In this document: positions 29,914-54,747 of the stretch, one piece after another
Layout: each line of letters opens with the position of its first letter
How positions within the stretch are numbered: position 1 is the first letter of the stretch
Virus record (IMG/VR): IMGVR_UViG_3300037071_003643
Location: 1 to 54,747 of that record
Direction: 5' to 3' (one strand)
Source: a virus
Taxonomy: Duplodnaviria > Caudoviricetes
DNA length: 54,747 nt
Program-made: the position numbers and the translations under genes
The notes under the pieces: model-generated
Database searches by the model: none
What the model saw: only the letters and a program-made list of their open reading frames with translations
Told to the model about the DNA's origin: nothing

Positions 29914-30102
29914 TCAGGAGGCGAATCGACCGCGCACTTGCTCCAGCTCGCGGATCATCTGCCGTAGCCCGTTCGCGACGATGAGCTCCTCGGGTCGATC
30001 GAATCCGGTACGACGCTGAAACTGGTAGCAGGCGGTGCATCGAGCGTTCGCGCGCGAGACTCGACCGCAGTAGGGGTTCGCGCACTTACGAGAGAGGGTC
30101 AA
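29914..30102 (-). CDS. Small Zn-finger protein
   Basis: CANPYC...CTAC. Confidence 0.55.
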   Translation of the reverse strand: MTLSRKCANPYCGRVSRANARCTACYQFQRRTGFDRPEELIVANGLRQMIRELEQVRGRFAS

Positions 30103-31274
30103 CCGTTCTGCTCCATCGCGTCGATCAGCTCGAGGAGGTCCATAGGCTCTGCGCTGGAGTGTAGCGCTTCGTCTACTCGCTCGTCCCAGGATGGTCCAGA
30201 GGCAGCTGGCACCAGGGCCTCGACGATCTCGCTCTGCTCGTCGCTGGCCTCCTGCGGCGTGAGCATGTGCTCGGGACCGATCTCCACGCCGTCGATCTCC
30301 ACGATGGTCTTACCGGTGAAGTCGCTCGCCGGTGGCTCGACGATCTCGGGCTTGCGCAGCCCCTCGTGGCGGCGCGGCCAGTAGTCGGGACGCGGGATCC
30401 ACTCGCCGTTCTCCAGGACCTCGAGACCCATGCCGAAGTCATCGACCTCGGGTAGCGGCTCGCTCTCGTCCTTGCGCTTCAGCGTCTGCTTGAACACGCT
30501 GTAGTCCACGTGGTGATGGTCGCGCCCGAACTTGAACGCGAGCCGTGCGACGTCCGGATGGAGGTCCACGATCATCTGCGACTTCGGCATCGTGCCCTCG
30601 GCCGCGTAGAACGCCTCCGTGTTGCCCCCGCCGATCACCTGCGTCCTGATCTTGTCGGCCAGGAACGCATTGAAGAGGACGGTGCAGAGACCGTCCTTCA
30701 GGATGCGCAGCGAGAGGTCCGTGTCCTCGTTGTAGCGCCCGCGCCACCGGTAATCGACGTCGTTGCGATTCAGTATGCAGGAGTAGATACGGGTGTTCAG
30801 GTAGTACGGCGATCGCGGCGGGACCTTCGAGACGATGAACATGAAGTATTGGAAGCCCGCCTGCCCGATGTTCTCGAAGCGATCGCAGAAGACCTCGGCC
30901 GCACGCATGATCGTCCCGTCGGCCACGGGTGTCTTCAGGTTGCGGTTGAAGCGATGGAAGTTCAGGATGTTGTCGTCCATCACCCAGTGCCACGCGTGAC
31001 CCTCGGCGATCGAGTGCTCCCACACGAAGTTGCGCGCGGGACCCGGGCCCTTCGACTTCGTGTCGCCGAGATCGTCGCACGTGTCGTACTGCCGCTGGTA
31101 TTCGGGATCGAGCACGAGCAGCCGCTCTCTCGGGAGGTACAGCGCGTAGTCCTCCAGCTGCTGCTCTTCCACGACGACACGATACGGGACGCCGATCTTG
31201 TCGAGCGCCTTCGGCGTGAGCATCGTCTTGGCGCGCGACTTCGAGACGATGTAGACCGGTGCGACGGGGTTCAC
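30099..31274 (-). CDS. TAGT/GREB1-like glycosyltransferase, probable DNA base modification
   Basis: VYIVSKSRA, GPGPARNFVWEHS, HWVMDDNI, NTRIYSCIL, RWRGRYNEDTDLSLR, TQVIGGGNT. Confidence 0.82.
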   Translation of the reverse strand: MNPVAPVYIVSKSRAKTMLTPKALDKIGVPYRVVVEEQQLEDYALYLPRERLLVLDPEYQRQYDTCDDLGDTKSKGPGPARNFVWEHSIAEGHAWHWVMDDNILNFHRFNRNLKTPVADGTIMRAAEVFCDRFENIGQAGFQYFMFIVSKVPPRSPYYLNTRIYSCILNRNDVDYRWRGRYNEDTDLSLRILKDGLCTVLFNAFLADKIRTQVIGGGNTEAFYAAEGTMPKSQMIVDLHPDVARLAFKFGRDHHHVDYSVFKQTLKRKDESEPLPEVDDFGMGLEVLENGEWIPRPDYWPRRHEGLRKPEIVEPPASDFTGKTIVEIDGVEIGPEHMLTPQEASDEQSEIVEALVPAASGPSWDERVDEALHSSAEPMDLLELIDAMEQNG

Positions 31275-31441
31275 TGATCGTCTCCCTCAAGGCAGTCGTC
31301 GTGTCGTCGAGCGAATCCGCCGAATACGTCGGCCGCTTGGACGAGTAGCAGCCCGATGGGTAGCGGCTCGCTCGCGCCGCATCGCTTGCACTCCATCTGC
31401 TGCGTGTTCGCGTTCGCGACGGCCCAGGTATTCTCGCTCAT
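31271..31441 (-). CDS. Small Zn-ribbon protein
   Basis: MSENTWAV...CKRCG...HDDC; coupled overlaps. Confidence 0.55.
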   Translation of the reverse strand: MSENTWAVANANTQQMECKRCGASEPLPIGLLLVQAADVFGGFARRHDDCLEGDDQ

Positions 31442-31722
31442 CGCTGCGGCTCCTCGCTGCGGTACTGCTTGTCCACGAACTTCACGTGCTCCAGCTTCGG
31501 GTACCAGATCGACGGCGTGATGCTGTGATCGGTGTTCGCGAGCGATTCCTGCCCGACCAGGATGAGGAAGGCGCGGCGATCGTCCTTGCTCGCGAAGTGC
31601 ACCAGCATCGAGCAGTCGGGTTCGAGTACGTCGTTGGCGTACTCCGGCATGCCCTTCCAGTCGTCGGCCCATCGGTCGTACTCCGAAGCGTCGAACATCC
31701 CGCCCGTGCCCTCATCGCTCAT
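31438..31722 (-). CDS. Small protein of the type found beside phage TAGT genes
   Basis: WKGMPEY...LVHF...F...GQ...SIWYP pattern, recalled from phage TAGT loci. Confidence 0.6.
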   Translation of the reverse strand: MSDEGTGGMFDASEYDRWADDWKGMPEYANDVLEPDCSMLVHFASKDDRRAFLILVGQESLANTDHSITPSIWYPKLEHVKFVDKQYRSEEPQR

Positions 31723-31879
31723 CGCAGTTCTCCCCCTCGACGCACTCGCTGTGATCGTCGGCGTCGTGCTTCGCGAGGATTGCGAACCCGCGCGGGTCGC
31801 CTATCTCGCCGTGTCCCTGGCAGTAGTCGTAGGGATCCCCGCATACGGGGCATCGTCCCACGTACTCCTCTTCCATCAT
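31712..31879 (-). CDS. Small Cys/His-rich hypothetical protein
   Basis: CPVCGDPYDYCQGHG. Confidence 0.5.
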   Translation of the reverse strand: MMEEEYVGRCPVCGDPYDYCQGHGEIGDPRGFAILAKHDADDHSECVEGENCDER

Positions 31880-32061
31880 CGCCAGTATTCTCCCCTCATC
31901 TTGTCGTGCCACTTCGGGCTCCAGCCGATGCATACGCACTTCGAGCATCCCTGGAGGATAGCCCATGTTCCGGCGTTCGTCGTGTGAGCGTGCGCGTCGT
32001 GCTTGCACCTGCAGTTCGGGACCTTCGGCGCATCGAGGCCGAGCTCACGCGTGTCTACCAT
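31876..32061 (-). CDS. Small Cys/His-rich hypothetical protein
   Basis: CRCKH...CSKCVC; coupled overlap. Confidence 0.5.
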   Translation of the reverse strand: MVDTRELGLDAPKVPNCRCKHDAHAHTTNAGTWAILQGCSKCVCIGWSPKWHDKMRGEYWR

Positions 32062-33467: not shown

Positions 33468-34448
33468 TCACTCGTCCTCGGTCCCGGTGGGGTCGGGCGC
33501 GGGGTCGCCTATCTGCGGTTCGTCCGCGGCGACGAAGGCTATCCCACTCTCAGCTTCGTACCACTCGCCTCCTGGGGTCCCGGTGGGGTCGGGCGCGGCG
33601 GGGGGTGCGGCATGATGCCCGCCGTCGTGTCCCACAGGCTTCATGCAGACCATCTCCGCCCCGCAGGTCCCGGTGGGGACGGTGTGCCAGGGGTCGTGAC
33701 AGGGTTCGGACTCCCCGTGTTTCGGCCTGAGCCCTTCTGCTGTCGCCTCGAATACGCTCCCCTGTTCATACAACTGACGGGTCATGCCGTCCCAGGACGC
33801 CTTCTCGTCCTCGCTTACCTCGCCACACGTCGGGCAGGTCGGTGGGGTGGGGTCGGTGTGCCACGGAGGTAGGTCAGCGTGCGTTGCATCGGTCCAGTCG
33901 GCACCGCCGCCGCTATGGGCATCGGTGTGACCCGTAGCTTTAGTGCAGGTGAACGTTTGGTGTTCGAGGGCACGTTCGGTGATGGTGTCGCCGCAAGTCT
34001 TCTCCGGCTCCCCCTCCTCGGAAGCTAGAGCAGCGCGGGCGGCGGATAGGGCAACGCGACCGTCCTTCTGCGCCGCCGCAACTAGCCGCTCGAACATGGT
34101 GGTCCCGGCGTTCTGCGTGTTGTTCAGGACCCATAGCATCGACCCGATGCCCTTCTCGGATTCCTCCAACGCTTCGGTGAGGGATACGACACGGGCCTCG
34201 GCAACGCTGGCACGCCGGGCGTTGTCGCTGGCCTGCTTGTGAACCGCGTCGGCGCTGTGCCTCGCTGCGTCCCTCTCGGCCTCTAGCTTCGTGCTGTCGT
34301 GCAGCATCGCTCGCCATTCGTTGTCGCGCTTCTCAATCTCGGCCTCTAGGGATGCGACGTGGGCGACGGCAAAGCACACGAAGCACCGGCCCCCGGGTTC
34401 GTGTTTGGGATGTGCCCGCATCATCGCCTCGAAGTCCGGCTCGTTCAT
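33468..34448 (-). CDS. Hypothetical coiled-coil protein with Cys/His modules and APDPTGT repeat
   Basis: Start MNEPDF; 23-bp direct repeat at 33480-33502 and 33576-33598. Confidence 0.55.
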   Translation of the reverse strand: MNEPDFEAMMRAHPKHEPGGRCFVCFAVAHVASLEAEIEKRDNEWRAMLHDSTKLEAERDAARHSADAVHKQASDNARRASVAEARVVSLTEALEESEKGIGSMLWVLNNTQNAGTTMFERLVAAAQKDGRVALSAARAALASEEGEPEKTCGDTITERALEHQTFTCTKATGHTDAHSGGGADWTDATHADLPPWHTDPTPPTCPTCGEVSEDEKASWDGMTRQLYEQGSVFEATAEGLRPKHGESEPCHDPWHTVPTGTCGAEMVCMKPVGHDGGHHAAPPAAPDPTGTPGGEWYEAESGIAFVAADEPQIGDPAPDPTGTEDE

Positions 34449-35149
34449 TCGGCCTCCCCTGGGGACGTGGATACGCGGGCGATCGCGAGCAACTGCTCTC
34501 CGATGAAGCGCGTATAGGCGGGCGGGATCGACTCGCTTAGTTCGTGCCCCGTCATCTCCCAGTCCACCCCCATCGCTGCTTTGTGCTCTTCGAGATCGAC
34601 CGCGCCGGTGTAGCCTCCCGAGATCGAGAGGACGCGGAGCGGCGTCGTGCGGTTCCACGCCGGAGGGTAGATGCGCGGGTAGGCGCCATGGATACAGGGC
34701 GGTGCCATCAGTACGACGTTCGACTCGAACTTCCGGTGGCGACGTATCGGGAGACCGAACGACGAGCCGCAGAGCTTGATCGCGTCGATGAGCGGAGCGC
34801 GCGGGACGTTCTCGATGACGTACGGCAATCCCGTACTGCGCAAGATCGTGCGCGTCGGCTCGATCAGGTCGGGATAGTTCTCGCGATTCTTGATCTTGAC
34901 GGCCTGGGAGAACGACTGGCACGGCGGGCTCGCGTGGATCGCCGAGACGGGTCGACCGTCGAACGTCACGACGCCGCTCGCGGGCCCGTCCCAGAGCGCG
35001 GTGAGTTCGAGCGCGTCGCCCTGATAGAACTCGAACGGGTAGTGCGGCTGGGGGTCGAGATCGACGCCGATGACCTCGTAGCCCGCCTGGTGATATCCCA
35101 TCGACGCGCCCCCTGCGCAGCAGAAGAGATCGACGAGGAGCGGCTTCAT
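34445..35149 (-). CDS. Short C5 cytosine DNA methyltransferase (234 aa)
   Basis: Motif I DLFCCAGG, motif IV ASPPCQ, motif VI IENV, RRHR, terminal ESIPPAY. Confidence 0.88.
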   Translation of the reverse strand: MKPLLVDLFCCAGGASMGYHQAGYEVIGVDLDPQPHYPFEFYQGDALELTALWDGPASGVVTFDGRPVSAIHASPPCQSFSQAVKIKNRENYPDLIEPTRTILRSTGLPYVIENVPRAPLIDAIKLCGSSFGLPIRRHRKFESNVVLMAPPCIHGAYPRIYPPAWNRTTPLRVLSISGGYTGAVDLEEHKAAMGVDWEMTGHELSESIPPAYTRFIGEQLLAIARVSTSPGEAE

Positions 35150-36330
35150 GGACGCCACACGGAATCGCGCGAGAGCGTGGCGAACGCCGCGTCGGTCTCC
35201 GGCGTCGAGCTGACGCGATAGTGCTGGTACCACGTGCCGCTGAAGATCGCATCGACGTTGCTGCGGCAGTAGAGGACGAGGATGCCGTCCTTCGCGGCCT
35301 GGACGATCTTCGGTTGCTGAGCGGCCTCGCGACCCTTCTGGTATTCGGGGTCGCGCGGGTCCTCGTGCCACGCCGTCTCCAGGATCGCGGCGGTTCTGCC
35401 TTCCTTCGCGCAGAGAGCGAACAGCTCGTCGGCCATGCCCTTCCCGTCGGCCTGGGTGAAGTCTTGCCACTTCTCGCCGAGGGTCTTGGAGCGATCCTTG
35501 TTCTTCGAGCCGTAGCGGTTGTAGAGATCGGCGGCGAAGGGCGCGTTGGGACCGAACTGGTCGTCAGGGAACGCGAGCCACGCCAGGCCGCGCTTCGCGC
35601 CGTCCTTGTAGTAGGCCTCGGTGAGCGCGGGCCACGTCCAGAGCCCGCCCTGCGCTTCGATCGCGGCGGGTGTGACGCCGACGCTCGCCATGACGTCCAT
35701 CACGTGCTTGGTCATGGCGACGAACCGAGCCGCGCGCTGCGCTTCATCCGGGATCTTCGACAGCTCGTCGTTCTCGGGCTCGTGCTGGATGTTGTGAGCT
35801 GCCAACAGGCCGAGGTCCATGACGGGCTTCAGTACGCCGGTCGCGTACGCCTTGATCTGCGCGTCGTAGGTGCCGCTCGCCACGGCTGCGAAGTCGTACG
35901 GGAGATGCGTCGAGATGTACAGCGGGTCGTTGCGACCCTTCGCGGCCGCGATGCGCGCGAGATCGCCGGAGTCGGTGCCGACCGCGGTCGGGTAGACGCG
36001 CCACATCCAGTGTCGGTCCTTGTTGATGCGCTCCATCTCGGCGATCGTGACGGCGGGGTTGTCGACGCCTCCCTCGCCGGCGACGCCCGACCGGAAGAAC
36101 TGCCCCAGGACGGGCTTGCGCGCCTTCGGGAGCTGCGCTTCCAACTCCTTCACGCGAGCCTCGAGGCGCGCGATCTCGTCGTGCAGTAGCGCGTTCTCCT
36201 CGAGCGCGGCGTCTCGCTCATCGACCGCCGAGAGGAGGAGCTCCTTCGTCGTCGCCAGCTCCGTTTCGAGGTCGTTGATGCGCTTCACTGCAGCGCCGGA
36301 TGCTTTGGTGAGATCGTCCTGAACGGTCAT
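35146..36330 (-). CDS. Coiled coil plus GH26-like glycoside hydrolase domain
   Basis: HEPEND, ADLYNR, ILETAW, VLYCRS pattern of clan GH-A TIM barrels. Confidence 0.6.
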   Translation of the reverse strand: MTVQDDLTKASGAAVKRINDLETELATTKELLLSAVDERDAALEENALLHDEIARLEARVKELEAQLPKARKPVLGQFFRSGVAGEGGVDNPAVTIAEMERINKDRHWMWRVYPTAVGTDSGDLARIAAAKGRNDPLYISTHLPYDFAAVASGTYDAQIKAYATGVLKPVMDLGLLAAHNIQHEPENDELSKIPDEAQRAARFVAMTKHVMDVMASVGVTPAAIEAQGGLWTWPALTEAYYKDGAKRGLAWLAFPDDQFGPNAPFAADLYNRYGSKNKDRSKTLGEKWQDFTQADGKGMADELFALCAKEGRTAAILETAWHEDPRDPEYQKGREAAQQPKIVQAAKDGILVLYCRSNVDAIFSGTWYQHYRVSSTPETDAAFATLSRDSVWRP

Positions 36331-36665
36331 ACCGAAGTCCCTTCCGTCTGTCGGTCGATGATGATGCCGCAGATCGAGCACTCGCGCGCGCCGATCAGCT
36401 GGTGGTGTTGCGCGAGCGCGACGACGACGCCGCTAGGTGAGGGCGCGAGCTGGCGCAGGAGCGCCTCTGTTCGACGAGATGCCCATATCGCGGTCGCTTG
36501 TGCCATCGTCTTGGCGCCGAGCGTAGCCCGTATCGCCGTCGCGTGTGTCCGAACCGTCTCGTTCGAGATGTACAACGCCTCGGAGATCGAGCGCGAGTTG
36601 CCGCCGCGTGCGTACAGTTCGAGGATCTGGATCTGCCGCGGCCCGAGCTGCGCGGCGCCCCTCAT
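36327..36665 (-). CDS. LuxR-type HTH regulator
   Basis: LGPRQIQILELYARGGNSRSISEALYISNETVRTH. Confidence 0.8.
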   Translation of the reverse strand: MRGAAQLGPRQIQILELYARGGNSRSISEALYISNETVRTHATAIRATLGAKTMAQATAIWASRRTEALLRQLAPSPSGVVVALAQHHQLIGARECSICGIIIDRQTEGTSV

Positions 36666-41083: not shown

Positions 41084-41439
41084 AGTCCCTCCTGATCCAG
41101 CTTGGCCTGGTACCAGCGTGCCTGTTCGTTGTCCAGTTGCATCTCCCAGCTACAGAACGAGCAGGGCGCTCCCTCGCCCGTATCGGCTGCCGCCTTGCAC
41201 GCCGGATGGACGCGCAGAGGCTTGGGCCGTAGCTCGATGACGACGCCCGCGCGGTTCGTCTCGCTCTGATGTTGCGCCGAGCGGCGGAGCTCCTCGGCTT
41301 GGACCGTGCGATTCGCGGGCTCGACCACGTTCCTGATCTTCTGCCCACGACCGATAGGGCAGTCGCGCTCGTGGAACCACGCGAGTCCCGACGGGGAATG
41401 GAACTGCTGCGGGCTGCAGCAGGTCGGGAGCGGTGTCAT
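41080..41439 (-). CDS. Hypothetical protein
   Basis: AAAGGAG RBS before MTPLPTCC. Confidence 0.5.
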   Translation of the reverse strand: MTPLPTCCSPQQFHSPSGLAWFHERDCPIGRGQKIRNVVEPANRTVQAEELRRSAQHQSETNRAGVVIELRPKPLRVHPACKAAADTGEGAPCSFCSWEMQLDNEQARWYQAKLDQEGL

Positions 41440-43562: not shown

Positions 43563-44036
43563 CTAACAGAAGCGCTCGAAGGCCGCGTCGTACAGCTCGG
43601 TCATGCCCACGTGGTAGTCACGAGCGGCGATCTGCCACGCTTCCCCGTTCGTGTTCGGGTCGGCCTTCTGTTCGAGTGCGTCGAGCCAGAGGCGCTTCGC
43701 CTGCGCGAGCGTGATGTACGGGTCGATGATCGTGTTGCACCACTTCTCAACGTACATCTGCGTGCGCAGGTAGTCCACGGCCTCGTCCACCTGGCTCGTC
43801 TCGACCACCGGCTCGGGATCGACGATCGGGCTAGGCGGGTTCGGGCTGAACGTCTCGCTAGGAGACGGTGCCGCGCTTGCGGGCTCGTTGGAATCGAACA
43901 CGTGCGCGAGATCGAGCCCGACCGCGAGTAGCACTGCGGCTGCGATCGCGATGAGCACGAGCTTGGACGTCGAGCTACCCTTCGGCGGCTCAGGTGCGGG
44001 CGTAGCTGGCATCGGTGGAACGGGTGGCATACTCAT
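43563..44036 (-). CDS. Membrane-anchored Pro-rich protein
   Basis: TM LVLIAIAAAVLLAVGL; GGGGAG RBS. Confidence 0.6.
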   Translation of the reverse strand: MSMPPVPPMPATPAPEPPKGSSTSKLVLIAIAAAVLLAVGLDLAHVFDSNEPASAAPSPSETFSPNPPSPIVDPEPVVETSQVDEAVDYLRTQMYVEKWCNTIIDPYITLAQAKRLWLDALEQKADPNTNGEAWQIAARDYHVGMTELYDAAFERFC

Positions 44037-44068
44037 AGCTGTTTCTCCCCTATCGTTGTCGTGGCGCG

Positions 44069-44308
44069 TCACTCGACGCGCTCCGGGTGCATCGTGTGCC
44101 AGTAGGTGATCGCGGCCGCGGTGCGGTTCGTGACCTCCATCTTCAGGTACACCCTCTGCAGGTGAACCTTGACGGTCTTTTCCGCCAGGTATAGCTCCCG
44201 GCCAATCTGCCGGTTGGTGCGCCCCTCGGCGACTTCGGTTAGGACGTCGATCTCTCGCGACGTCAGGCCGTAGCGCGTCTGGAGCGGGTGTCGTACCTCT
44301 GTCTGCAT
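44069..44308 (-). CDS. Stand-alone LuxR/NarL-type HTH
   Basis: GLTSREIDVLTEVAEGRTNRQIGRELYLAEKTVKVHLQRVYLKMEVTNRTAAA. Confidence 0.9.
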   Translation of the reverse strand: MQTEVRHPLQTRYGLTSREIDVLTEVAEGRTNRQIGRELYLAEKTVKVHLQRVYLKMEVTNRTAAAITYWHTMHPERVE

Positions 44309-44321
44309 CTTCCCTCCTTCC

Positions 44322-44552
44322 TCAACCTTGGACCGTGTCGGGATCTTGGACCGTGTGAACCTGCCCCGCGGGAATCGAGAGCGTGATGTCATCGTCGCGC
44401 TCGATCTCGACCCACCAGCCGGACAGGTGTGACCACTTCACGGCGCGTACGACGCCGCGCCACGGGCGGATGTTCTCCTCCGTGACTTCGACCTCGACGC
44501 CTCGTGCGAATGGCTGTTCGGTGTGCACCGGCTTGGACCGCGTGCGATTCAT
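44322..44552 (-). CDS. Small hypothetical protein
   Basis: AGGAG RBS; ATGA coupling. Confidence 0.5.
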   Translation of the reverse strand: MNRTRSKPVHTEQPFARGVEVEVTEENIRPWRGVVRAVKWSHLSGWWVEIERDDDITLSIPAGQVHTVQDPDTVQG

Positions 44553-44764
44553 CGCTTGTCTCCTGCCTCGATGACCAGGTCGGGTGCGAGGTTCTCCTCG
44601 TCTCCCGATGCCTCGTACGTCGCGTGCCGATAGACCTCGACGCGCTCGAACGTCCCCAGGAACTTGCCCTGGCCGTCGCTCGCCTCGAACGAGTAGCCGT
44701 GGCCCTCGATCTCGTGTAGGCGCAGCGTCCACTTCGGGTCCTTCACCGTTATGGCGTCTCTCAT
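44549..44764 (-). CDS. Small hypothetical protein
   Basis: GGAGG RBS; coupled. Confidence 0.55.
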   Translation of the reverse strand: MRDAITVKDPKWTLRLHEIEGHGYSFEASDGQGKFLGTFERVEVYRHATYEASGDEENLAPDLVIEAGDKR

Positions 44765-44937
44765 CGTGCCTCCTTCCTCGATCGCGAGAACGTGCGACGA
44801 ATCGCGCCGCGCTCGTCCAGCTGGCTCCGTGCTGTCAGCAGCTGGGAGATCACCCAGCCGTAGTAGCTCTCGCTACCATCGGTGCACCGCCACTCGGCTT
44901 CGAGCGCGCGGCGATCTCGAACCGCCTTTCTGGTCAT
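44761..44937 (-). CDS. Small hypothetical protein
   Basis: MTRKAVRD start; GGAG RBS; coupled. Confidence 0.5.
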   Translation of the reverse strand: MTRKAVRDRRALEAEWRCTDGSESYYGWVISQLLTARSQLDERGAIRRTFSRSRKEAR

Positions 44938-45173
44938 CGTGCTCCCTCCTCGATCGGCTCCATCTGGACGGCTCGATACGTCCCGAGCCCGTCGCGCTCG
45001 TTCATCCGGAACGACGCGAGACACGCGTGCTCGTAACAGTGGCTCGCGCGTCCTAGCGGAGCTCCGTACGGGTCGAATCGACCGAAGGCTCCCTCGCCCG
45101 CGATCGTGAACGTGGCTCGCTGTTCGCACTGCTCGCGCCCGAGTACCCAGACGCACTGCTCGATCCCTTTCAC
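44934..45173 (-). CDS. Small hypothetical protein
   Basis: GTG start after AAAGGAGA. Confidence 0.5.
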   Translation of the reverse strand: MKGIEQCVWVLGREQCEQRATFTIAGEGAFGRFDPYGAPLGRASHCYEHACLASFRMNERDGLGTYRAVQMEPIEEGAR

Positions 45174-45202
45174 GACGTCTCCTTTCCTTGGACCTTGGGC
45201 CG

Positions 45203-45400
45203 CTAGTGGGTCGCGCGCGGCGTCTGCGCGATGCGCTCGACCGGCGCGCTGATCCACGCCGACGCGATCTCGGGTCGCTCGAGGAACCTGAACGCGAACG
45301 CTTCAAGCTCGCCTCGACCGACGGGGGTATCTTCGCGCGTCTCTGCGCAGATGACGGTGCCGTCGATCGCCATCTTGACGAATAGCTGGCGGTACTTCAT
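45203..45400 (-). CDS. Small hypothetical protein
   Basis: GAGGAG RBS; directly downstream of promoter 45427-45455. Confidence 0.55.
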   Translation of the reverse strand: MKYRQLFVKMAIDGTVICAETREDTPVGRGELEAFAFRFLERPEIASAWISAPVERIAQTPRATH

Positions 45401-45426
45401 AACGTCTCCTCTCTGTCCGTGCGCTC

Positions 45427-45455
45427 AGGATAGCAGACTCGCTAACGAGCGTCTA
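45427..45455 (-). promoter_or_regulatory. Early-type promoter
   Basis: TAGACG-ctcgttagcgagtctgc-TATCCT, 17-bp spacer. Confidence 0.65.
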
Positions 45456-45618
45456 GCGGGGTCGCTAGCACGCCGACCTCTTCGAGCTGCTGTCGAGCGC
45501 CGCTCTCGACGTAGTTCTGTACGTCCTCTCGGATCGCTCGCGCGTCGAGCCCGGTGCCGTAGTTCATCGACCAGGCCTCGCGGTCGATCTCGACGGTGAA
45601 CGAGACTCGAACCTTCAT
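45442..45618 (-). CDS. Small hypothetical protein
   Basis: MKVRVSFTVEIDREAW; GAGGGAG RBS. Confidence 0.55.
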   Translation of the reverse strand: MKVRVSFTVEIDREAWSMNYGTGLDARAIREDVQNYVESGARQQLEEVGVLATPLDAR

Positions 45619-46043
45619 CGTGCTCCCTCTCTCTCCATCCGCGCGTTCTCGTACGTCGCGCTGGCGTACGTCGTCTCGACGTGCTCGACGCAGCCGCAGT
45701 AGCGTCCTCGCTCGATCAGCGAGTGGCCAACGATCGCGTCTCGCACCATGAACGTGTACACCTGGAGCGAGTACGTCGTCGGCTCGTCCACGGGCTTCTG
45801 GAAGTCGCCGCCACCGGTCATGACCCCGCCGAAGAGCGAGGGCGTATGCGTCTCGACGACGTGGCCCGGTAGGCTCGCGATCTCGAAGCTGGACCAGTTG
45901 CGCATCGGGTAGCGCCCGCCGTCGAGCACGATGCGCTGGTACCACGCGGCGACCTCGAACTGCCGCGTGACCTCTGCGCCTGGCTCGACGACGACCACGT
46001 AGGTGCCGTCCTCGTCCTGCTCGTACCGAATGGCGTCGTTCAT
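45615..46043 (-). CDS. Hypothetical protein
   Basis: AAGGAGG RBS before MNDAIRYE. Confidence 0.6.
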   Translation of the reverse strand: MNDAIRYEQDEDGTYVVVVEPGAEVTRQFEVAAWYQRIVLDGGRYPMRNWSSFEIASLPGHVVETHTPSLFGGVMTGGGDFQKPVDEPTTYSLQVYTFMVRDAIVGHSLIERGRYCGCVEHVETTYASATYENARMEREGAR

Positions 46044-46071
46044 GCTCGATCCCCTCCTTTGGGCCGTGCTA

Positions 46072-46431
46072 TCAGATGGCGACGTGCCCGCACTCCAGGA
46101 TGTACGTCTGGGTAGGGTCGGCTCGGTCGACGACGGGACCTTCCTTGACGACGACGCGTTGGACGCCTTCGACGTTCGCGACGTCGCAGAGGTAGCAGGT
46201 GAGCATCCAGGCTGCCTGGATGCTGTAGCCCTCGTACGTCGTGGCCCAGGACACGCTCTGTCCCTGGTGGCGATGCAGCCACGCGTAAGCCTCCAGCTCG
46301 CTATCGAACGCGGGTGAGACGGGCTCACCGTCGCGGTACACCTGGACTGGAATCTGCGCGTCGTCTGTCATCTCGTCCTCCATCGTGCTCTCGATCTCGC
46401 TCCTGCGGTACTCGCTGAACGTCTCGCTCAT
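46072..46431 (-). CDS. Acidic hypothetical protein
   Basis: GGAGGA RBS; coupled. Confidence 0.55.
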   Translation of the reverse strand: MSETFSEYRRSEIESTMEDEMTDDAQIPVQVYRDGEPVSPAFDSELEAYAWLHRHQGQSVSWATTYEGYSIQAAWMLTCYLCDVANVEGVQRVVVKEGPVVDRADPTQTYILECGHVAI

Positions 46432-46739
46432 CGCTCGTCCTCCTCCTCGTTGAGCTCACGACGCAGGCGGTCGATTGCGCCGGGCTGGTAGCCGTCGCGA
46501 TCTTCCTTCCACGTCTCGATCCAGGGAATCGTGTAGGCCCGGAGCTGTCCGTGGACCGTGAGTCCCGCGTCCTCGGACTTACGCGCGGCCCGCTCCAGCA
46601 GTTCGAGCGCGTCGTTGAGCTTGTCCTGAGCGCTCTCCAGCAGGTCGTCGATCTCGTCTCGCGTCTCGACGTCGTACTCGATCTCGGGGTTGCAGGCGGT
46701 GCAGTCGTCCTCGTGCTCGCAGTTCGTCCAGGTGGTCAT
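46428..46739 (-). CDS. Acidic hypothetical protein
   Basis: MTTWTNCEHEDDC; GAGGA RBS. Confidence 0.55.
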   Translation of the reverse strand: MTTWTNCEHEDDCTACNPEIEYDVETRDEIDDLLESAQDKLNDALELLERAARKSEDAGLTVHGQLRAYTIPWIETWKEDRDGYQPGAIDRLRRELNEEEDER

Positions 46740-46777
46740 CGTCTCGTTCCTCTCTACTCGATGGAGCTTGGACCGTG

Positions 46778-48476: not shown

Positions 48477-48827
48477 ATGCCACGAGCAGCCCAGCGCGCA
48501 TGTGCACAGCCGGGCTGCGGGGGCTTCGCGATCGCCGGTCGCTCTCGCTGTCGAGAGCACGGAGCGTCCCAGCAGCCGCGTCGCCACGACCCGACGCACG
48601 CCGTCTACAAGTCGCCGAGATGGAAGGCGCTGCGGCGTCGAGTACTGAGCGAGGAGCCGGTCTGTCGTCACTGCGGCTCTCGCCCGTCGGTCGTCGTCGA
48701 TCACCTGACGGAGCTCACGGACGGGGGCGACCCGTTCGATCGAGCGAACCTCGCGGGATCCTGTAACGAGTGCAACGTCTCGAAGGGCCAGCGAGCGGCC
48801 CAGCGTCGTAGGAAGGCCTCGGCATGA
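48477..48827 (+). CDS. HNH endonuclease (HK97 gp74-like, terminase-associated)
   Basis: RWKALRRRVLSEEPVCRHC, VVDH, NLAGSCNECN. Confidence 0.88.
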   Translation: MPRAAQRACAQPGCGGFAIAGRSRCREHGASQQPRRHDPTHAVYKSPRWKALRRRVLSEEPVCRHCGSRPSVVVDHLTELTDGGDPFDRANLAGSCNECNVSKGQRAAQRRRKASA

Positions 48828-49925: not shown

Positions 49926-50128
49926 CTGAGCTCCGCGTCGTCGGCGAGACGTCCTGGAGCGGCTGCGCCATCTGCGATCGAGCGGACGAGCACTACCACT
50001 CGATGGAAGAGCTGGGACGCGCGTTCGCCGAGACGACGGGCCTGACGATCCACGATTCCGACTCGCAACGTAACTGGGCAGCCGCGATCGACCTTGGACC
50101 TTCCGTGGACCTTGGACCTTCGGACTGA
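49922..50128 (+). CDS. Small hypothetical protein running into the repeat array
   Basis: GTGA coupling; CAIC...HYH. Confidence 0.45.
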   Translation: MTELRVVGETSWSGCAICDRADEHYHSMEELGRAFAETTGLTIHDSDSQRNWAAAIDLGPSVDLGPSD

Positions 50129-50203
50129 CAGTCGGCTTGGACCTTGGACCTTTGGACCTTGGACCTTGGACCTTGGACCTTGGACCTTGGACCTTGGACC
50201 TTG
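50092..50203 (+). repeat. Tandem heptamer array (TTGGACC)n
   Basis: 7 perfect units at 50152-50200, 2 at 50137-50150, about 3 more at 50094-50118. Confidence 0.95.
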
Positions 50204-50507
50204 CCCGCGTCTCGCGCGCTCGTCTCGATCGACGCTCGCGCGCTCGACGTCGCGATCGCGATCGCGCGCTTCGCTCGCTTCGACGTCTCGCGAGCTTTCG
50301 AGCTTTCGACGATCTCGCGCGCTCGACGCTTCGACGTCGCGATCGCTCGACGCGACTTCGACGCGCTCGAAGATCGACGACGCGCTAGCTCGTCTCGCGC
50401 TCTCTACTAGTAGTCGCTCGACGCGCTCTCTCTAAGCGCTCGTCTCTCGCTCGAACGTACGAGCGCGAAGCGTAAGCTAGAACTAACGCTTTCGTTAGCG
50501 AATACGC

Positions 50508-50536
50508 TAGACGTTCGTTAGCGACTTCGCTAGTCT
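50508..50536 (+). promoter_or_regulatory. Promoter for the 1118-aa ORF
   Basis: TAGACG-ttcgttagcgacttcgc-TAGTCT; near copy of the promoters at 45455 and 47497. Confidence 0.7.
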
Positions 50537-50588
50537 CTCGTTAGTCGCTCGTATCGAGACGAGCGAACGAGAGAAAGAGAGACGAGCC

Positions 50589-53500
50589 ATGATCGAGAAC
50601 GAGAACGAGACGCGAGACGCGATCGAAGCGACGATCGAAGAGCTACGAAGCGAGCGCTACGCGAAGTCGAACGAGCGCGACGCTCGCGACGACGACGTAG
50701 ACGCGATTAGCGAGTCGATCGTAGACGAAGAGACGTACGTCGCGAACGTCGCGAAGCTCTCGAACGTCGAGCGCTTCGACGTCGAAAGCTCGATCGCGTC
50801 GAAGCGCGTCGAGCGCGAGCTAGCTAGTCGCGCGAGCGACGATCTCTCGCGCGAGATTCGCGCGCTCGACGAAGAGATCGAAGAGAAAGTCGCTTATCTC
50901 GCGACGCTCGCGAGCGTCGAACGCGACGTCGCGAGCTACGTCGAAGAGACGCTCGACGACGACGCGCTCGCTCGCGTCGCTCGCGCTTCGCTCGACGACG
51001 CGAAGAGCGAAGAGAGCGACGACGCTTTCGATCGCGAAGAGAGCGACGAAGAGCGCGCGACGCGCGAAGAGATCGAGCGCGAAGAGAACGAGTCGAAGAT
51101 CGACTATCGCGATCTCGACGCTTTCGATCGCGCGTTCGATCGAAGCGACGCTCTCGACGTTCTCGCGAGCGAGCTAGACGCGCTTCGCGATCGCGAGATC
51201 GACGAAGAGCTAGCGCTCTCTCGTTCGCTCGCGATCGTCTACGACGTCGTAAAGAGCGCGCGCGTCGAAGCGACGAACGCTACGAACGTCGCGCGTCGCG
51301 TCGCTCGCGATCGCTTCGACGTCGAGCGCGAAGTCTCGAAGCGCTCGCGCGTCGAAGCTCTCGATCTCGCGCTCTCGATCTTCGAGAGCGTCTACGCGAG
51401 CTACGAATACTCGCGCTACGCGATCGACTTCGAGCGCGTCTACGTCGCTCTCGCGACGATTCGCGACTTCGAGATCGAGAACGAGCGCGACGACGACGAA
51501 GCGACGCTCTCGCTCGAAGAGAGCGACGCGCTCGCTAGCTCGATCGTCTCGAAGAGCGCTTACGAGAACGCGACGACGCGCGAAGAGCGCGACGCTCGCT
51601 CGCTCGCTCGACGCGACGCGATCGCGAACGACGCGAAGCGACGCGAGATCGACTCGACGCTCGAAGAGACGCGCGCGAAGATCGACGAAGCGCGTAAGCG
51701 CTCGATCGCGTTCGCGCGCGAGAGCGAGCGAGCGTTCGAGAACGAGACGAGCGACGCGCTCTCGACGTTCGACGTCGAAGAGTACGCGCGAGACGAAGCG
51801 CGCTACGACGCTTATATCGTCTCGCTCGCTACTCGCGTCGTCGAGACGTTCGACGACGACGCGCTCGACTACGATATCTTCGCGTTCGTCGCTCGCTCGC
51901 TCGACGTCGTAGACGTCGAGAGCGCTCGCGAGAACGAAGCGAGCGAAGAGTATCTCGTCTCTCGCGAGACGTTCGTTAGCGTCGCGAGCGACGTCGTACG
52001 AGTCTCGATCTCGCTCGTCTACGACGAAGCGCTCGAAGAGAACGAAGCGCGCGACGTCGAAGCGATCGTCGCTCGTAAGATCGAAGAGCGCGAGCGCGAA
52101 GAGTTCGCGCGCTCGTTCGAGTTCGTCGATTCGCTCTCGAAGATCGAGCGCGACTACTACGACGCTTTCGAGCGCGACTACTACGAGCGCTACGGCGCTA
52201 ACGAGTACGTAACGACGTCGAGCGACGATATTCTCGGTCGCGTCGTCTACGTAGACGACGATCGAGACGAGACGACGACGCGCGAAGAGCGCGAGAACGA
52301 GACGACGACGCGCGTCTACTTCGAGCGCGATTCGTTCGCGAAGCTCGTTAGCGAGACGACGACGAAGAACGACTCGACGACGCTCGACGAAGCTCGCGCG
52401 CTTATCTCGAAGCTCGAAGCGAGCGTCGCGCTCGTCTCGAAGAGCGACGACGACGAAGCGCTCGACGCTACGCGAGACGAGAGCGAGTACGTCGTCGTAG
52501 AGAACGACGACGCGCGCTCTTACGACGTCGTAGCGCGAGACTCGATCGCGAAGCGCGCGACGCGCTCGTTCGACGACGACGACGACGACGAAAGCGAGAA
52601 CGTCGCGAATAACGACGCGATCGCGACTTACGCGAAAGAGAACGACGTCTCTCTCGCGAGCGCTATCGAGACGTTCGACGTCGTCGAAGAGATCGTCGCG
52701 AACGACGATCGCGTAAGCGACGCGCTCGCTACGAGCGTCGCTCGCGAAGAGCTACGCGAACGCGAGATCGACTTCGACGACGAAGCTCTCTCGAAGCTCG
52801 TAGACGAAGCGATCGCGAAGCGCGACGCGACGACGTACGAGACGAAGCGCGAGAGCGCGCGAGACGTCGCTACGCGAGCGCTCGAAGTCGCGAGCGACGA
52901 AGAGCGCGAAGTCGCGATCGAGATCGAAGCGAAGATCGAGAACGCGCGAGACGTCGAGCGTACGAAGCTCGCGAGAGATCGCGCGCTCGATCGTCTCGAC
53001 GCGCTTACGAGCGCTCGCGAAGTCGTCTACGAGCGACAGTTCGAGCTAGACGAGAGCGAAGAGCGCGACGCTTACGCGCTCGTTCTCGACGATCTCGAAA
53101 GCGCGCTCGACGAAGCGCGCGACGACGTAGACGCGAAGCGCGAACGTCTCGCGTCTCTCTACTTCGTCGAGACGAACGACGACGACGCGAAGAGCGACGA
53201 CGCGAAAGCGAGCGACGCTCTCGAAGCGATCGAGCGCGAGAACGCGAAGATAGACGAAGAGACGAAGCGCGACGACGACGCGACGCGCGAGAGCGCTTCG
53301 ACTTCGTTCGCTCGCGCGATCGCGAGCGCTAACGTCGAATACGCTTACGACGTCGCGTTCGATAACGCGATCGACTTCGAGAACGACGACGACGTAGCTA
53401 TCGACGTCGAAGCGCTTATCGACGATCTCGAAGTCGTCGTCTACGAAGCGTCGCGCGAGATCGAGAACGAGTACGAGCGCGACGTCGTTCGCGAAGTCGT

Positions 53501-53945
53501 CGTCGAGTACGTCGAGACGATTCGCGCGCTAAACGCGACGTCTACGACGAGCGAAGAGACGAAGAGCGCGTCGAGCGTCTCGCTTCGCGACTTCGACGAC
53601 GCGCTACGTATCGAGAACGACGAAGAGCGCGTCGCGAAGCTAACGTCGTTCGCGTCGCGCTCGAAGTCGAAGAGCGATCGAAAGAGCGCGAGCGACGAAG
53701 TCGTGCGCGAGTACGTCGCGAAAGCGCTCGACGATCTCTACGCGAGCGAGATCGAAAGCGCGATCGCGAGCGAGCTAGACGCGAACGACTACGAGAGCGA
53801 CGAAGCGCGACGTATCGCGAAGCGCGAAGCTCTCGTTAGCGCGATCGTCGATACGTCGTCGCTCGCTCTCTACGACGCGAACTACGACGTAGACGAGATC
53901 GAAGAGAACGACGCGCTAGAACGATTCGCGCGCGAGATCGTCTAG
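50589..53945 (+). CDS. Giant acidic protein with restricted alphabet; candidate DNA-mimic anti-defence protein
   Basis: 1118 codons open although TAG/TAA are common in the segment; own promoter, purine-rich RBS, downstream hairpin; function is inference. Confidence 0.8.
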   Translation: MIENENETRDAIEATIEELRSERYAKSNERDARDDDVDAISESIVDEETYVANVAKLSNVERFDVESSIASKRVERELASRASDDLSREIRALDEEIEEKVAYLATLASVERDVASYVEETLDDDALARVARASLDDAKSEESDDAFDREESDEERATREEIEREENESKIDYRDLDAFDRAFDRSDALDVLASELDALRDREIDEELALSRSLAIVYDVVKSARVEATNATNVARRVARDRFDVEREVSKRSRVEALDLALSIFESVYASYEYSRYAIDFERVYVALATIRDFEIENERDDDEATLSLEESDALASSIVSKSAYENATTREERDARSLARRDAIANDAKRREIDSTLEETRAKIDEARKRSIAFARESERAFENETSDALSTFDVEEYARDEARYDAYIVSLATRVVETFDDDALDYDIFAFVARSLDVVDVESARENEASEEYLVSRETFVSVASDVVRVSISLVYDEALEENEARDVEAIVARKIEEREREEFARSFEFVDSLSKIERDYYDAFERDYYERYGANEYVTTSSDDILGRVVYVDDDRDETTTREERENETTTRVYFERDSFAKLVSETTTKNDSTTLDEARALISKLEASVALVSKSDDDEALDATRDESEYVVVENDDARSYDVVARDSIAKRATRSFDDDDDDESENVANNDAIATYAKENDVSLASAIETFDVVEEIVANDDRVSDALATSVAREELREREIDFDDEALSKLVDEAIAKRDATTYETKRESARDVATRALEVASDEEREVAIEIEAKIENARDVERTKLARDRALDRLDALTSAREVVYERQFELDESEERDAYALVLDDLESALDEARDDVDAKRERLASLYFVETNDDDAKSDDAKASDALEAIERENAKIDEETKRDDDATRESASTSFARAIASANVEYAYDVAFDNAIDFENDDDVAIDVEALIDDLEVVVYEASREIENEYERDVVREVVVEYVETIRALNATSTTSEETKSASSVSLRDFDDALRIENDEERVAKLTSFASRSKSKSDRKSASDEVVREYVAKALDDLYASEIESAIASELDANDYESDEARRIAKREALVSAIVDTSSLALYDANYDVDEIEENDALERFAREIV

Positions 53946-53976
53946 CGCGCTCGATCGCGCTAGAACGAGCGAGCTA

Positions 53977-54000
53977 AGAGCGACGCGAGAGCGTCGCTCT
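53977..54000 (+). terminator. Terminator-like hairpin
   Basis: AGAGCGACGC-GAGA-GCGTCGCTCT, 10-bp stem with GNRA loop; no U tract. Confidence 0.55.
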
Positions 54001-54489
54001 CTCGCTGTCTAAGCTCGTCTAAGCGTCGCGCGATACGTCGTTAGTCTCTCGTACTAGCTCGCGCGCTCGACGTCTCTACGTCGCTTAGAGAGCGCTACGC
54101 GCGATCTCGCTTCGCGCTCTCTCGACGTCTCTAAGCGATCGACGCTCGCTCGCGTACGTCTACTCGTCTCGCGATCGCGCGTCGCTTAGACGCGCTCTCG
54201 TAGCGCTACGCGCTCGCTCTCGATCGACGACGCGATCTCGAAGCTCTACGCGCTCGCGCTAGAACGCGCGCTCGATCGTCTCTCGCTCGACGCGCGCTTC
54301 GCTTCGTCGCGCTCTCGATCTCGACGCTACGCGCTCGTCTACGTCGAACGTCTACTCGTACGCGCTCGCTCGCTCGTCTAGCGTAGAGAGCGGCCTAAGC
54401 GACGCTACGACGTCGAGACGCGACGCTCGTACGAGACGCGACGACGCTATCTCGATCGCTTAGAACGCTCGGCCTAAGCCACGAGGCGC

Positions 54490-54548
54490 GAAAGCTAGCG
54501 ACGATTCGACGAAACCTAGCGCTAGCTTCGACGTCGAGAAAGCTAGCG
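54490..54548 (-). repeat. Inverted copies of the left-end repeat
   Basis: GAAAGCTAGCG 54490, GAAACCTAGCG 54511, GAAAGCTAGCG 54538, the reverse complements of CGCTAGSTTTC. Confidence 0.7.
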
Positions 54549-54747
54549 ATACGTATAGCTTCGCGATCGAGAGTAGCTAGCTTCGAGACGTTCGCGAGAT
54601 ACGTTCTAGCGTAAGCGATACGAGAGAACGAGAGATCGTAAGCGACGCTAAGCGACGACGGCCGAGATAGCTTACGTCGTAAGAGATATCCCAGGGCGGG
54701 GTCGAATCTCTCGGTCCGCCGCGCGGGGATCAGCAAGTCTCTCCTTC

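Follow-up and report, generated by a model that had tools for sequence, protein, structure and literature searches.

The window analysed here is the whole 54,747-nt record of a soil phage, classed as linear in IMG/VR, and its features are listed in Table 1. The genes follow the order of an HK97-like cos module (HNH, Terminase_4, TerL, portal, S49 protease and HK97-type capsid), recognized through PF01844, PF05119, PF04860, PF01343, PF05065 and TerL relatives, and the placement of the HNH gene beside cos and terminase matches the arrangement in the accessible text of PMC3592412. The word TCGCTAGSKTTC occurred 10 times relative to 1.49 expected and is inverted between the two contig ends, matching the cos-like repeats of the original prediction; judged by sequence and position, the copies preceding terS are a candidate cosB-like TerS binding array. 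In the Logan assemblies of runs X1 and X2, contigs end at 54737 and nothing extends past 54747, although contigs cannot show molecule ends. Given the HK97-like cos layout, the right-hand end of the genome probably enters the capsid last and leaves it first.

Table 1. Features of the 54,747-nt phage record, in order of position.
Feature	Position	Strand	Details
Four direct copies of TCGCTAGSKTTC	58..151	+	Just upstream of terS
Small terminase (Terminase_4)	164..625	+	PF05119, E=4.1e-26
TAGT-family glycosyltransferase	30099..31274	-	PF20691, E=3e-40; domain at residues 6-216 of 391
Short C5-cytosine DNA methyltransferase	34445..35149	-	234 aa; PHROG 363, E=1.8e-41; PF00145, 25.1 bits
Protein translationally coupled to the methyltransferase	35146..36381	-	GH26-like fold: Atlas feature score 0.87, TM ~0.62 to GH26 clusters
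Eight dispersed heptad copies	41299..46774	+	Transcribed strand of the early genes reads GGTCCAA(G)
HNH endonuclease	48477..48827	+	PF01844, E=4.9e-6; type adjoining cos and terminase genes
Tandem heptad array, TTGGACC	50090..50205	+	TRF period 7; ~17 copies, 11 perfect; left edge of depleted segment
Terminal segment nearly free of CA/TG and CC/GG	50206..54690	both	18 seen vs 1098 expected
23-bp direct repeat containing CGTTAGCG	50491..50544	+	TRF, 2.3 copies; 45-100 nt upstream of P0001 start
P0001, acidic orphan ORF	50589..53945	+	1118 aa; pI 4.2; net charge -167
Three inverted copies of TCGCTAGSKTTC	54490..54549	-	Near right end

Both of the modification genes that had been predicted, a TAGT-like glycosyltransferase and a C5-methyltransferase, were recovered by family matches (Table 1), and the methyltransferase motifs DLFCCAGGAS, PPCQSFS and ENV are visible. 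The start codon of the methyltransferase and the stop codon of the gene preceding it share bases (ATGA). The product of that preceding gene has one homologue (66% identity) and, as a lead only, may adopt a GH26-like glycoside hydrolase fold. A six-frame search with Tet_JBP (PF12851) produced no hit at E ≤ 1, a cut-off that the controls also missed, and this counts against the interpretation favoured below. Fifty ORF translations scanned against Pfam yielded no dioxygenase, searches of this genome detected neither Tet_JBP nor a TGT or ThyA-like gene, and Tet_JBP was seen in 0 of five phage records with a close TAGT homologue, where the control was silent as well.

The right-hand end of the genome, 8.2% of the record, has almost absolutely lost the complementary pairs CA/TG and CC/GG on both strands. 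Across its 4485 nt the four dinucleotides CA, CC, GG and TG occurred 18 times (3, 6, 6 and 3, respectively), where the rate seen in the body (0.245) predicts ~1098, and the core (50206-54391) held eight relative to 1025 expected, three of which are supplied by the CCATG at the P0001 start codon. The depletion was stronger than first described; its extent of ~8% of the window held, as did its position directly before cos/terS, at the adjoining end of an HK97-like cos phage, whereas the right edge lies at 54690 rather than at 54.4 kb. Since the non-coding flanks (50206-50588 and 53946-54690) were depleted too, the purge acts on DNA and not on protein. A scan of 3-mers and 4-mers in the segment revealed no constraint beyond the dinucleotide rule, and the last 57 nt of the record (54691-54747) were normal (16 seen, 13.7 expected). 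Two observations count against an unmodifiable leader, namely that 10 forbidden dinucleotides, with three GGCC among them, persist in its last 300 nt, and that the segment is a singleton, with no counterpart in any relative.

The only gene possible under the dinucleotide rule was shown to be one long ORF, P0001, built from 13 amino acids whose codons are free of the four dinucleotides (E169 A154 D149 R114 S105 V96 L73 T54 I53 Y43 K37 N35 F32), with M1, G536, G550 and Q817 the only residues outside this alphabet. Acidic residues (D+E) make up 28% of the protein and basic residues (K+R) 13.5%; GC by codon position was 0.68/0.38/0.80, and the frame has no in-frame stop vs 24-44 stops in the other frames. 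P0001 had no Pfam or PHROG family and no homologue in any database searched, and its AF2 model was mostly helical. The acidic ORF of the original prediction exists, but its Ocr-like role was not supported, with neither a family nor a confident fold, and neither sequence nor fold (mean pLDDT 43) places it with Ocr/ArdA. Lying between HNH and terS, P0001 is transcribed in the direction of the genome end and could be a late gene; of a leader, the stretch holding its promoter would enter last. Both points count against the leader interpretation. The 23-bp repeat upstream of its start is a candidate promoter or operator. The word within it, CGTTAGCG, occurred 10 times relative to 2.29 expected, once at 47481 (- strand) in a divergent intergenic region.

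The predicted repeat boundary was present as a period-7 array, with 17 copies at 50090-50203. The array holds 44 forbidden dinucleotides in 116 nt, and would be densely filled with modifiable sites if the phage modifies C[A/C]. All 19 heptad matches in the genome lie on the + strand (3.02 expected), and several of the dispersed copies occupy short gaps immediately ahead of a ribosome-binding site and start. The heptad at the boundary is a dispersed, putatively regulatory motif, which counts against the leader interpretation, and its eight further occurrences among the early genes, none of them on the opposite strand, weaken the proposal that the array is a T5-like injection stop.

Loss in the segment extended to specific longer words. 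Eight 6-bp palindromes that the dinucleotide rule would permit (CTCGAG, GTCGAC, TTCGAA, ACGCGT, ATCGAT, GAGCTC, AGATCT and AAGCTT) were absent relative to 54.9 expected, as were the 5-mers AGAAG (17.6 expected) and AAGAC (15.6 expected). The rule itself removes 28 of the 64 six-bp palindromes, and others among the 36 still possible were at expectation (seen/expected: CGATCG 39/42.5, CGCGCG 43/49.5, TCGCGA 45/47.1, GACGTC 26/27.9), as were GCGCGC and every allowed 4-bp palindrome. The body avoids the same eight only partly (89 copies, O/E 0-0.64), so these motifs are missing from the presumed leader and present elsewhere in the genome, as in leading-region restriction-site avoidance. This supports a pressure to lose restriction sites that is stronger in the segment than in the body. 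Lacking both the four dinucleotides and the restriction sites that the body avoids, the segment resembles DNA built to be invisible to DNA-cutting defences.

Within the body, strong avoidance (z < -3) affected five of the 16 palindromes without CA/CC/GG/TG but none of the 18 containing them (Fisher p=0.016), a post hoc split that rests on five palindromes; those containing them totalled 313 relative to 363.9 expected. No such split was seen in 34 pooled control phage loci (424 kb; MWU p=0.74). Eight pooled loci with relatives of the methyltransferase (45-48% identity) avoid CA/TG-containing palindromes (CTGCAG 4/24.1, CCATGG 16/40.3; MWU p=0.78), which counts against the favoured interpretation.

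We tentatively favour, at somewhat short of an even chance, a phage that modifies C[A/C] and has a leader both unmodifiable and free of restriction sites. The right-hand 8% would be a 'stealth leader' from which strong per-site selection has removed anything that a DNA-targeting defence reads, its end entering the capsid last and leaving it first, in the manner of lambda-type cos phages. A rule at the level of dinucleotides calls for an agent whose recognition spans just two bases, and this agent might be the phage's own modification, of very short specificity, at C with A or C as the next base. The short-TRD C5-methyltransferase would write the mark, which the TAGT-like glycosyltransferase may elaborate. 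In the body, modification would shield all CA/TG/CC/GG sites, leaving only other sites to sequence avoidance. The leader, having no modifiable position, would enter unmodified and evade modification-dependent (type IV-like) nucleases; classical R-M would fail against it as well, since no unprotected site is left to cut, and its acidic protein, or the leader itself, would act before the modified body is exposed.

Evidence on genome-wide modification of C[A/C], as originally proposed, is divided: the class split in the body gives it modest support, but the failure to find a Tet_JBP, TGT or ThyA-like gene and the misfit of published specificities speak against it. The accessible texts describe TET-linked phage C5-MTs specific for GpC[C/T] or GpCN (PMC8256090) and thymine dioxygenases of phages with NTG or NTC specificity (PMC13229309), so phages do possess enzymes that read two to three bases, which favours a dinucleotide-specific modification. 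However, none of the published phage C5-MT specificities equals C[A/C], which counts against the leader interpretation, and a GpC[C/T] or GpCN enzyme would still act on the segment, where GCT is abundant (351 GCT/AGC, both strands counted). The complete picture, namely a dinucleotide-specific modifying phage with a blank, first-entering 4.5-kb end that has also shed all restriction sites beyond the reach of the modification, is invisible to classical and modification-dependent restriction, carries a cargo of 13 amino acids and has the heptad array as its border, is more doubtful still. If true, a blank leader would be a new anti-defence architecture and its cargo a natural experiment in reduced-alphabet proteins.

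Of the alternatives, the one that survives best, although we regard it as unlikely, is a site-free leader in a phage that modifies nothing, shaped by host defences reading two or three bases or by very many host specificities. It is consistent with the eight palindromes being fully lost from the leader and partly from the body, with the loss of AGAAG and AAGAC and with the negative oxidase search, and it has a precedent in the accessible text of PMC12455610. However, a host nuclease that reads these dinucleotides should press on the body too, where palindromes with CA/TG/CC/GG are not avoided; six-bp sites cannot clear every instance of a dinucleotide; and the 4-bp palindromes that the rule permits, like many of the 6-bp ones, are as frequent as expected. 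This alternative corresponds to the purge of R-M, BREX or PAM motifs offered in the original prediction, which in its generic form cannot explain the loss of whole dinucleotides: 36 of 64 six-bp palindromes are still possible.

An inverse arrangement, in which modification of C before G or T saturates the leader, much as T-even DNA is fully substituted, appears improbable. Cytosines in the segment are followed by G or T in nearly every case (CG 0.75, CT 0.243, vs 0.452 and 0.173 in the body), so every leader cytosine would be shielded, and tolerance of CG-rich palindromes there would be explained. Against this, ATCGAT, GTCGAC, CTCGAG, TTCGAA and ACGCGT, all with C in CG, are the most avoided in the body and absent from the leader, which indicates that sites of this class behave as unprotected.

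We attach a similarly small probability to a segment that is no leader at all and belongs to a late rightward operon (HNH ... cos ... terS), with its composition serving packaging or termination or silencing internal signals. P0001 shares its orientation with HNH and terS, a scan of the segment found no sigma-70-like promoter, and the dinucleotide rule removes signals of this kind: without TG/CA there is no ATG, GTG or TTG on either strand, except for one ATG, and without GG/CC there is no Shine-Dalgarno core. Yet avoidance of spurious initiation is weak selection per site that cannot yield a 98% loss, and the loss of the eight palindromes is left unexplained.

A mutational origin through context-specific editing, such as deamination of C before A or C, fits the symmetry of the loss between strands and the raised TA and GA, but we consider it very improbable: GC drops just from 65.3% in the body to 61.7% in the segment, CG rises from 0.145 to about 0.23, the 1118-codon frame stays open with GC3 at 0.80, and specific 6-mers are lost too. 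Least credible of all is an assembly chimera joined through the tandem repeat, a reading invited by the Logan assemblies of X1 and X2, in which a 4.56-kb contig of its own carries the segment and the heptad array is the sole point of contact with the body, but opposed by sequence-identical pieces of both parts at ~3-4x in two further samples and by matching codon GC profiles. Because segment and body have equal depths in independent contigs (149.2 vs 143.2; 146.4 vs 151.4), TCGCTAGSKTTC is inverted at both ends, including that of the segment, and both parts shun the same palindromes, the segment is a genuine part of this phage.

The favoured reading of an unmodifiable, site-free leader has partial counterparts in known systems. 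Like the DNA mimics Ocr and ArdA, P0001 is strongly acidic and encoded at the presumed leading end; however, those proteins have ~120-170 aa, in contrast to the 1118 aa of P0001 with its 13.5% basic residues. The heptad resembles the stoperators of mycobacteriophages as described in the accessible text of PMC9283540, being a short asymmetric motif in one orientation relative to transcription, with several copies in short intergenic gaps, but stoperators are 13 nt long vs 7-8 nt here, and a 17-copy tandem array is found only here; searches of this genome found no integrase or ParB. A C5-MTase is shared with the C5-MT/5mYOX (TET)/glycosyltransferase clusters in the accessible texts of PMC8256090 and PMC13229309, and the TAGT-family enzyme is a candidate for their DNA glycosyltransferase. 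Unlike in those clusters, no 5mYOX was detected, the methyltransferase and glycosyltransferase genes lie 3 kb apart, and the proposed C[A/C] differs from the known GpC[C/T], NTG and NTC specificities; our literature search returned no hypermodification cluster reported together with an unmodifiable genome segment.

T5 first-step-transfer DNA, which is transferred first and expresses the pre-early genes (10.64898/2026.04.02.716235, accessible text), is likewise ~8% of the genome at one end with a repeat-rich boundary. Unlike T5, this record has no long terminal direct repeat (comparison of the segment with the rest gave only weak, composition-driven matches), no T5 pre-early homologues were found in this genome, and the boundary heptad is also dispersed through the early region. 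In Murciavirus (Autographiviridae), according to the accessible text of PMC12455610, whether the phage escapes Type I R-M depends solely on the motif being absent from the early-injected region. There, with T7-type entry, as here, motifs are missing only from the region that enters, or here would enter, first (0 in the leader vs 89 in the body here). Unlike T7-like Murciavirus, this is a cos siphovirus-type genome whose entry order we infer, and two complementary dinucleotide pairs are gone over 4.5 kb.

The predicted dinucleotide-depleted segment was borne out, as positions 50206-54690 contained 18 CA, CC, GG or TG dinucleotides compared to 1098 expected at the rate of the remaining genome (the body; 0.245). 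The core of this segment (50206-54391) held 8 of these dinucleotides versus 1025 expected, three of which were contributed by CCATG at the start codon of P0001, the segment's only ORF. Depletion was symmetric (CA with TG, CC with GG), and the void reached beyond P0001 by 383 nt on the 5' side and 745 nt on the 3' side, indicating that the constraint acts on DNA. The 3-mers and 4-mers that are still allowed showed no further constraint (ratios 0.35-1.51). GC content dropped only to 61.7% in the segment, with CG increased to about 0.23 of all dinucleotides, and the record's first bases and final 57 nt were of normal composition. When ten dinucleotide classes were scanned for voids across all fetched loci, only the window stood out (log10 E of -138 and -90), and the next-best void (log10 E of -10.5) was a low-complexity Lys/Glu/Ala coding stretch in locus L128. 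These results confirm that the composition of the segment is highly non-random.

Within the last 300 nt of the segment, three GGCC sites persisted (54391-54483 and 54657-54664), two of them in a repeated CGGCCTAAGC unit, and these may be functional sites near cos. Folding of the 3' flank of the segment was no better than that of shuffled sequence (z = 0.67). Outside the segment, short stretches free of the four dinucleotides were observed at 46643-46686 (43 nt) and 47138-47176 (38 nt), the latter in a divergent intergenic region that has patches of segment-like composition.

Features of the record and their positions (nt unless kb is stated)
Feature	Position	Strand	Remarks
TCGCTAGSKTTC, four direct copies	58-151		Directly before terS
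Small terminase (terS), Terminase_4 family	164-625
Large terminase (TerL)	690-2375
Portal, S49 protease, HK97-type capsid	After TerL		Followed by tail genes and NlpC/P60 lysin
420-aa protein	6270-7532	+	Between capsid gene and head-tail genes
Early genes	30.1 to 47.1 kb		Leftward block
TAGT-family glycosyltransferase	30099-31274
Second HNH-type endonuclease	32517-33041	-	HNH_2, E=6e-5; between TAGT and MTase genes
324-aa protein	33468-34442	-	Just downstream of MTase, in another frame
C5-MTase	34445-35149		234 aa; very short variable region
411-aa protein	35146-36381	-	Translationally coupled to C5-MTase, whose start overlaps its stop (ATGA)
Short rightward block	47.7 to 50.1 kb		Includes HNH endonuclease, 48477-48827
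Heptad array	50090-50203		About 17 copies, 11 perfect TTGGACC
P0001	50589-53945	+	1118 residues
TCGCTAGSKTTC, three inverted copies	54490-54549

Avoidance of restriction sites was assessed with the 36 six-bp palindromes that the dinucleotide rule permits, the counts of which were bimodal in the segment. Eight were absent (pooled, 0 versus 54.9 expected), and CGATCG, CGCGCG, TCGCGA, GACGTC, AGCGCT, GCGCGC, GCTAGC and CGTACG occurred at expectation. The 5-mers AGAAG (0 versus 17.6 expected) and AAGAC (0 versus 15.6) were missing as well. In the body, avoidance of the same palindromes was only partial (O/E of about 0.34); this level would leave about 19 sites in the segment, whereas it holds none, which argues for stronger selection on the segment against restriction targets. 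This pattern is the signature expected of DNA surviving alone for a time, and overall we consider it probable that evasion of DNA-targeting defences shaped the segment.

Palindromes absent from the segment, with observed and expected counts
Palindrome	Segment observed	Segment expected	Body observed	Body expected
CTCGAG	0	13.9	36	71.1
GTCGAC	0	10.7	9	49.5
TTCGAA	0	8.4	0	14.3
ACGCGT	0	6.6	11	21.8
ATCGAT	0	4.8	4	42.4
GAGCTC	0	4.7	25	39.3
AGATCT	0	3.3	2	15.4
AAGCTT	0	2.5

The dinucleotide rule itself excludes no more than 28 of the 64 six-bp palindromes and 4 of the 16 four-bp ones, and GATC, TCGA, CGCG, GCGC, ACGT and AGCT were found at expected counts in the segment. Since selection on 4-8-bp sites cannot clear every instance of a dinucleotide, the agent responsible must recognise about two bases. 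Comparably short specificities are documented for DNA-modifying enzymes of phages, namely TET-linked C5-methylases with GpC[C/T] or GpCN specificity (PMC8256090) and thymine dioxygenases that favour NTG or NTC (PMC13229309). The best-supported mechanism, which we hold tentatively, is that this cos phage would modify its body at C[A/C] contexts and that the leader, at the end presumed to enter first, has no restriction sites and probably no sites that could be modified. Evasion of defences without any modification by the phage is possible but unlikely.

A second comparison was made in the body using 34 six-bp palindromes with an expectation of at least 8, with strong avoidance defined as z<-3. 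Strong avoidance was seen for 5 of 16 palindromes lacking CA, CC, GG and TG and for 0 of 18 containing them (Fisher p=0.016, in a post hoc test resting on five palindromes). This split is the pattern expected if sites with CA, CC, GG or TG were shielded in the body and other sites were avoided by sequence. Pooled controls from 34 high-GC TerL relatives (424 kb) showed no class difference (MWU p=0.74). Weighing against this reading, no such split appeared in the 8 pooled loci carrying MTase relatives (45-48% identity). The mirror-image explanation, in which the leader is instead saturated with modification at CG and CT, is distinctly unlikely, as the most avoided words (ATCGAT, GTCGAC, CTCGAG, TTCGAA and ACGCGT) have their cytosines in a CG context.

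Genes that might provide such a modification lie in the early block. Searches of the record found the C5-MTase but no TGT/DpdA or ThyA-like hydroxymethylase, and no Tet_JBP, for which the controls never reached the cut-off; methylation of the phage DNA is thus plausible, whereas the presence of glycosylated hydroxymethyl bases is unproven. Tet_JBP likewise gave no match in any of the 5 phage records that carry close TAGT homologues, with a silent control. PDB sequence searches with the MTase and P0004 gave no match. The 411-aa protein coupled to the MTase has a coiled coil at its N terminus and a fold resembling GH26 glycoside hydrolases (Atlas look-alikes, score 0.87, TM about 0.62), a predicted likeness that we treat as a lead only, and had one homologue only (66% identity). 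The neighbouring 324-aa protein is Cys/His-rich with a central coiled coil and had no Pfam, PHROG or PDB match.

In lambda-type phages, packaging starts at the terminase-proximal end, and ejection starts with the end that was packaged last; it is only by analogy with this rule that the segment end would enter first. The original prediction had also placed a repeat array at the segment boundary, with the T5 injection-stop signal given as a precedent. The array is present, and its reading as a T5-type injection-stop signal is weakened by dispersed regulatory use of its heptad. Eight further copies of TTGGACC were confined to 41.3-46.8 kb (41299-46774), all on the + strand, and overall 19 of 19 heptad matches were on this strand (3.02 matches expected). 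The transcribed strand of the early genes reads the heptad as (C)ACGGTCCAAG, and several dispersed copies were directly upstream of ribosome-binding sites or starts of leftward genes. Recurrence in the early region, on one strand and near ribosome-binding sites, indicates a regulatory motif of the phage. In how it is oriented and placed, the motif recalls stoperators (PMC9283540) and may be a stoperator-like site; alternatively, it may regulate in antisense fashion, with rightward transcription of the array giving RNA complementary to those early leaders. Bound by protein, the array could still form a barrier.

P0001 consisted of A, D, E, R, S, V, L, T, I, Y, K, N and F, the only exceptions being two Gly, one Gln and the initiator Met. 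The genetic code offers codons free of the four dinucleotides for precisely these 13 amino acids, and P0001 is therefore a natural 1118-residue protein in which Pro, His, Cys and Trp are missing and Met is confined to the start. Its frame had no stop in 1118 codons compared to 24-44 stops in the segment's remaining five frames, indicating that it is held open by selection, and GC by codon position (0.68/0.38/0.80) resembled that of TerL and portal. The product is acidic (pI 4.2, net charge -167) and belonged to no Pfam or PHROG family; no homologues were found by tblastn in phages, by HMMER among 1.84 billion cluster representatives or by a word-indexed search over 5.8 billion clusters, and Atlas gave no look-alike. 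A single-sequence AlphaFold model predicted mostly long helices (mean pLDDT 43, too weak for fold comparison). On the minus strand of the segment, one frame was open for 513 codons, though ATG, GTG and TTG cannot occur there; this is probably a by-product of composition.

P0001 points to the genome end, in line with the upstream HNH gene and with terS across cos. It could thus belong to the late operon, and this orientation agrees with a late-operon or signal-silencing role as the explanation of the segment, to which we nonetheless assign a low probability. The 383-nt gap 5' of P0001 may hold the gene's own promoter. A 23-bp repeat there carries two copies of the octamer CGTTAGCG (50493-50523), which had 10 matches in the record versus 2.29 expected, including 47481 in the divergent intergenic region (47.1-47.6 kb) and 45440. 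The segment gave no hit in a scan for sigma-70-like consensus promoters, a match that the dinucleotide rule makes nearly impossible there.

Mutational editing as the origin of the depletion is very improbable. Origin from an amplified short unit was rejected, because TRF showed only short, weak repeats within the segment and because ordinary mutational divergence would recreate hundreds of forbidden dinucleotides. In Logan assemblies of sequencing runs X1 and X2, which may be the source samples of the record, the body contig stopped at 50181 inside the heptad array and a separate 4.56-kb contig covered 50174-54737. Depths of the body and segment contigs were equal (149.2 versus 143.2 and 146.4 versus 151.4). 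Runs X4 and X5 yielded fragments of both body and segment, identical in sequence, at about 3-4x; X4 differences at 54420-54600 were left out, being single low-depth contigs of lower likeness, and a C>T variant at 52259 in X5 would make a TG (depth 2.7, possible error). None of the Logan contigs extended beyond 54747. The terS-proximal motif TCGCTAGSKTTC, found near both record ends, had 10 matches versus 1.49 expected. Given the equal depths, shared TCGCTAGSKTTC and common palindrome avoidance in segment and body, a chimera was judged unlikely, and an assembly artefact or chimera is barely credible.

The window is one entire IMG/VR virus entry of 54,747 bp (class linear; 65% GC) with a CheckV completeness estimate of 63% and an HK97-like gene order. 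An HNH gene adjoining cos and terminase genes is a known layout (PMC3592412). Joining of the record ends (54733-54747 and 1-12) gave a 6-bp inverted repeat, TCCTTC/GAAGGA, around two bases, a symmetry that may be cosN-like or due to chance. The 420-aa protein carries Glyco_transf_7C (GT2-like) and SAM-methyltransferase domains and may modify the virion surface. Searches of the record for a tyrosine integrase, serine recombinase or ParB were negative, and neither Rfam families nor tRNA were found. Megablast of positions 1-20000 against 50,697 phage records gave no match and no close cultured relative was found, the best TerL identity in this set being 35%. A TerL search of genome contigs retrieved three distant relatives in MAGs (Micromonosporaceae, Streptosporangiaceae and Paludibaculum), a weak hint of host; an actinobacterial host is plausible. 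All 6 of the 6 runs holding the phage were soil metagenomes, with no RNA runs listed among them.

Searches for relatives with such a segment covered 37 IMG/VR loci found with TerL (26-70% identity), none of which had a depleted stretch (lowest forbidden count per 150-nt window, 17-38). The heptad-array pattern matched 16 unrelated loci, none depleted, and the cos-motif pair pattern matched 2 unrelated low-GC loci only. The 204-aa neighbour protein matched 2 distant loci, 582 TAGT relatives were found (80 kept), and the MTase had 8 relatives. No published description of such a segment was found in the literature searched.

If the depletion is caused by the phage's own short-specificity modification, the genome would be the first known to combine a modified body with an unmodifiable leader. 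This reading predicts MTase specificity, native-read modification maps of body versus leader, and entry order, all of which are testable, and long runs without a complementary dinucleotide pair offer a scan statistic for analogous leaders. The discoverers of post-replicative, sequence-limited phage modifications doubted a protective rationale for them (10.1101/2023.12.21.572611); a split between modified body and blank leader would, if true, supply it. The absence of sites from the segment matches a published case in which escape depends solely on whether the first-injected region lacks the motif (PMC12455610). Known examples of such evasion at the leading end concern single motifs, whereas here one quarter of dinucleotide types has been lost over 4.5 kb, at the price of seven amino acids.
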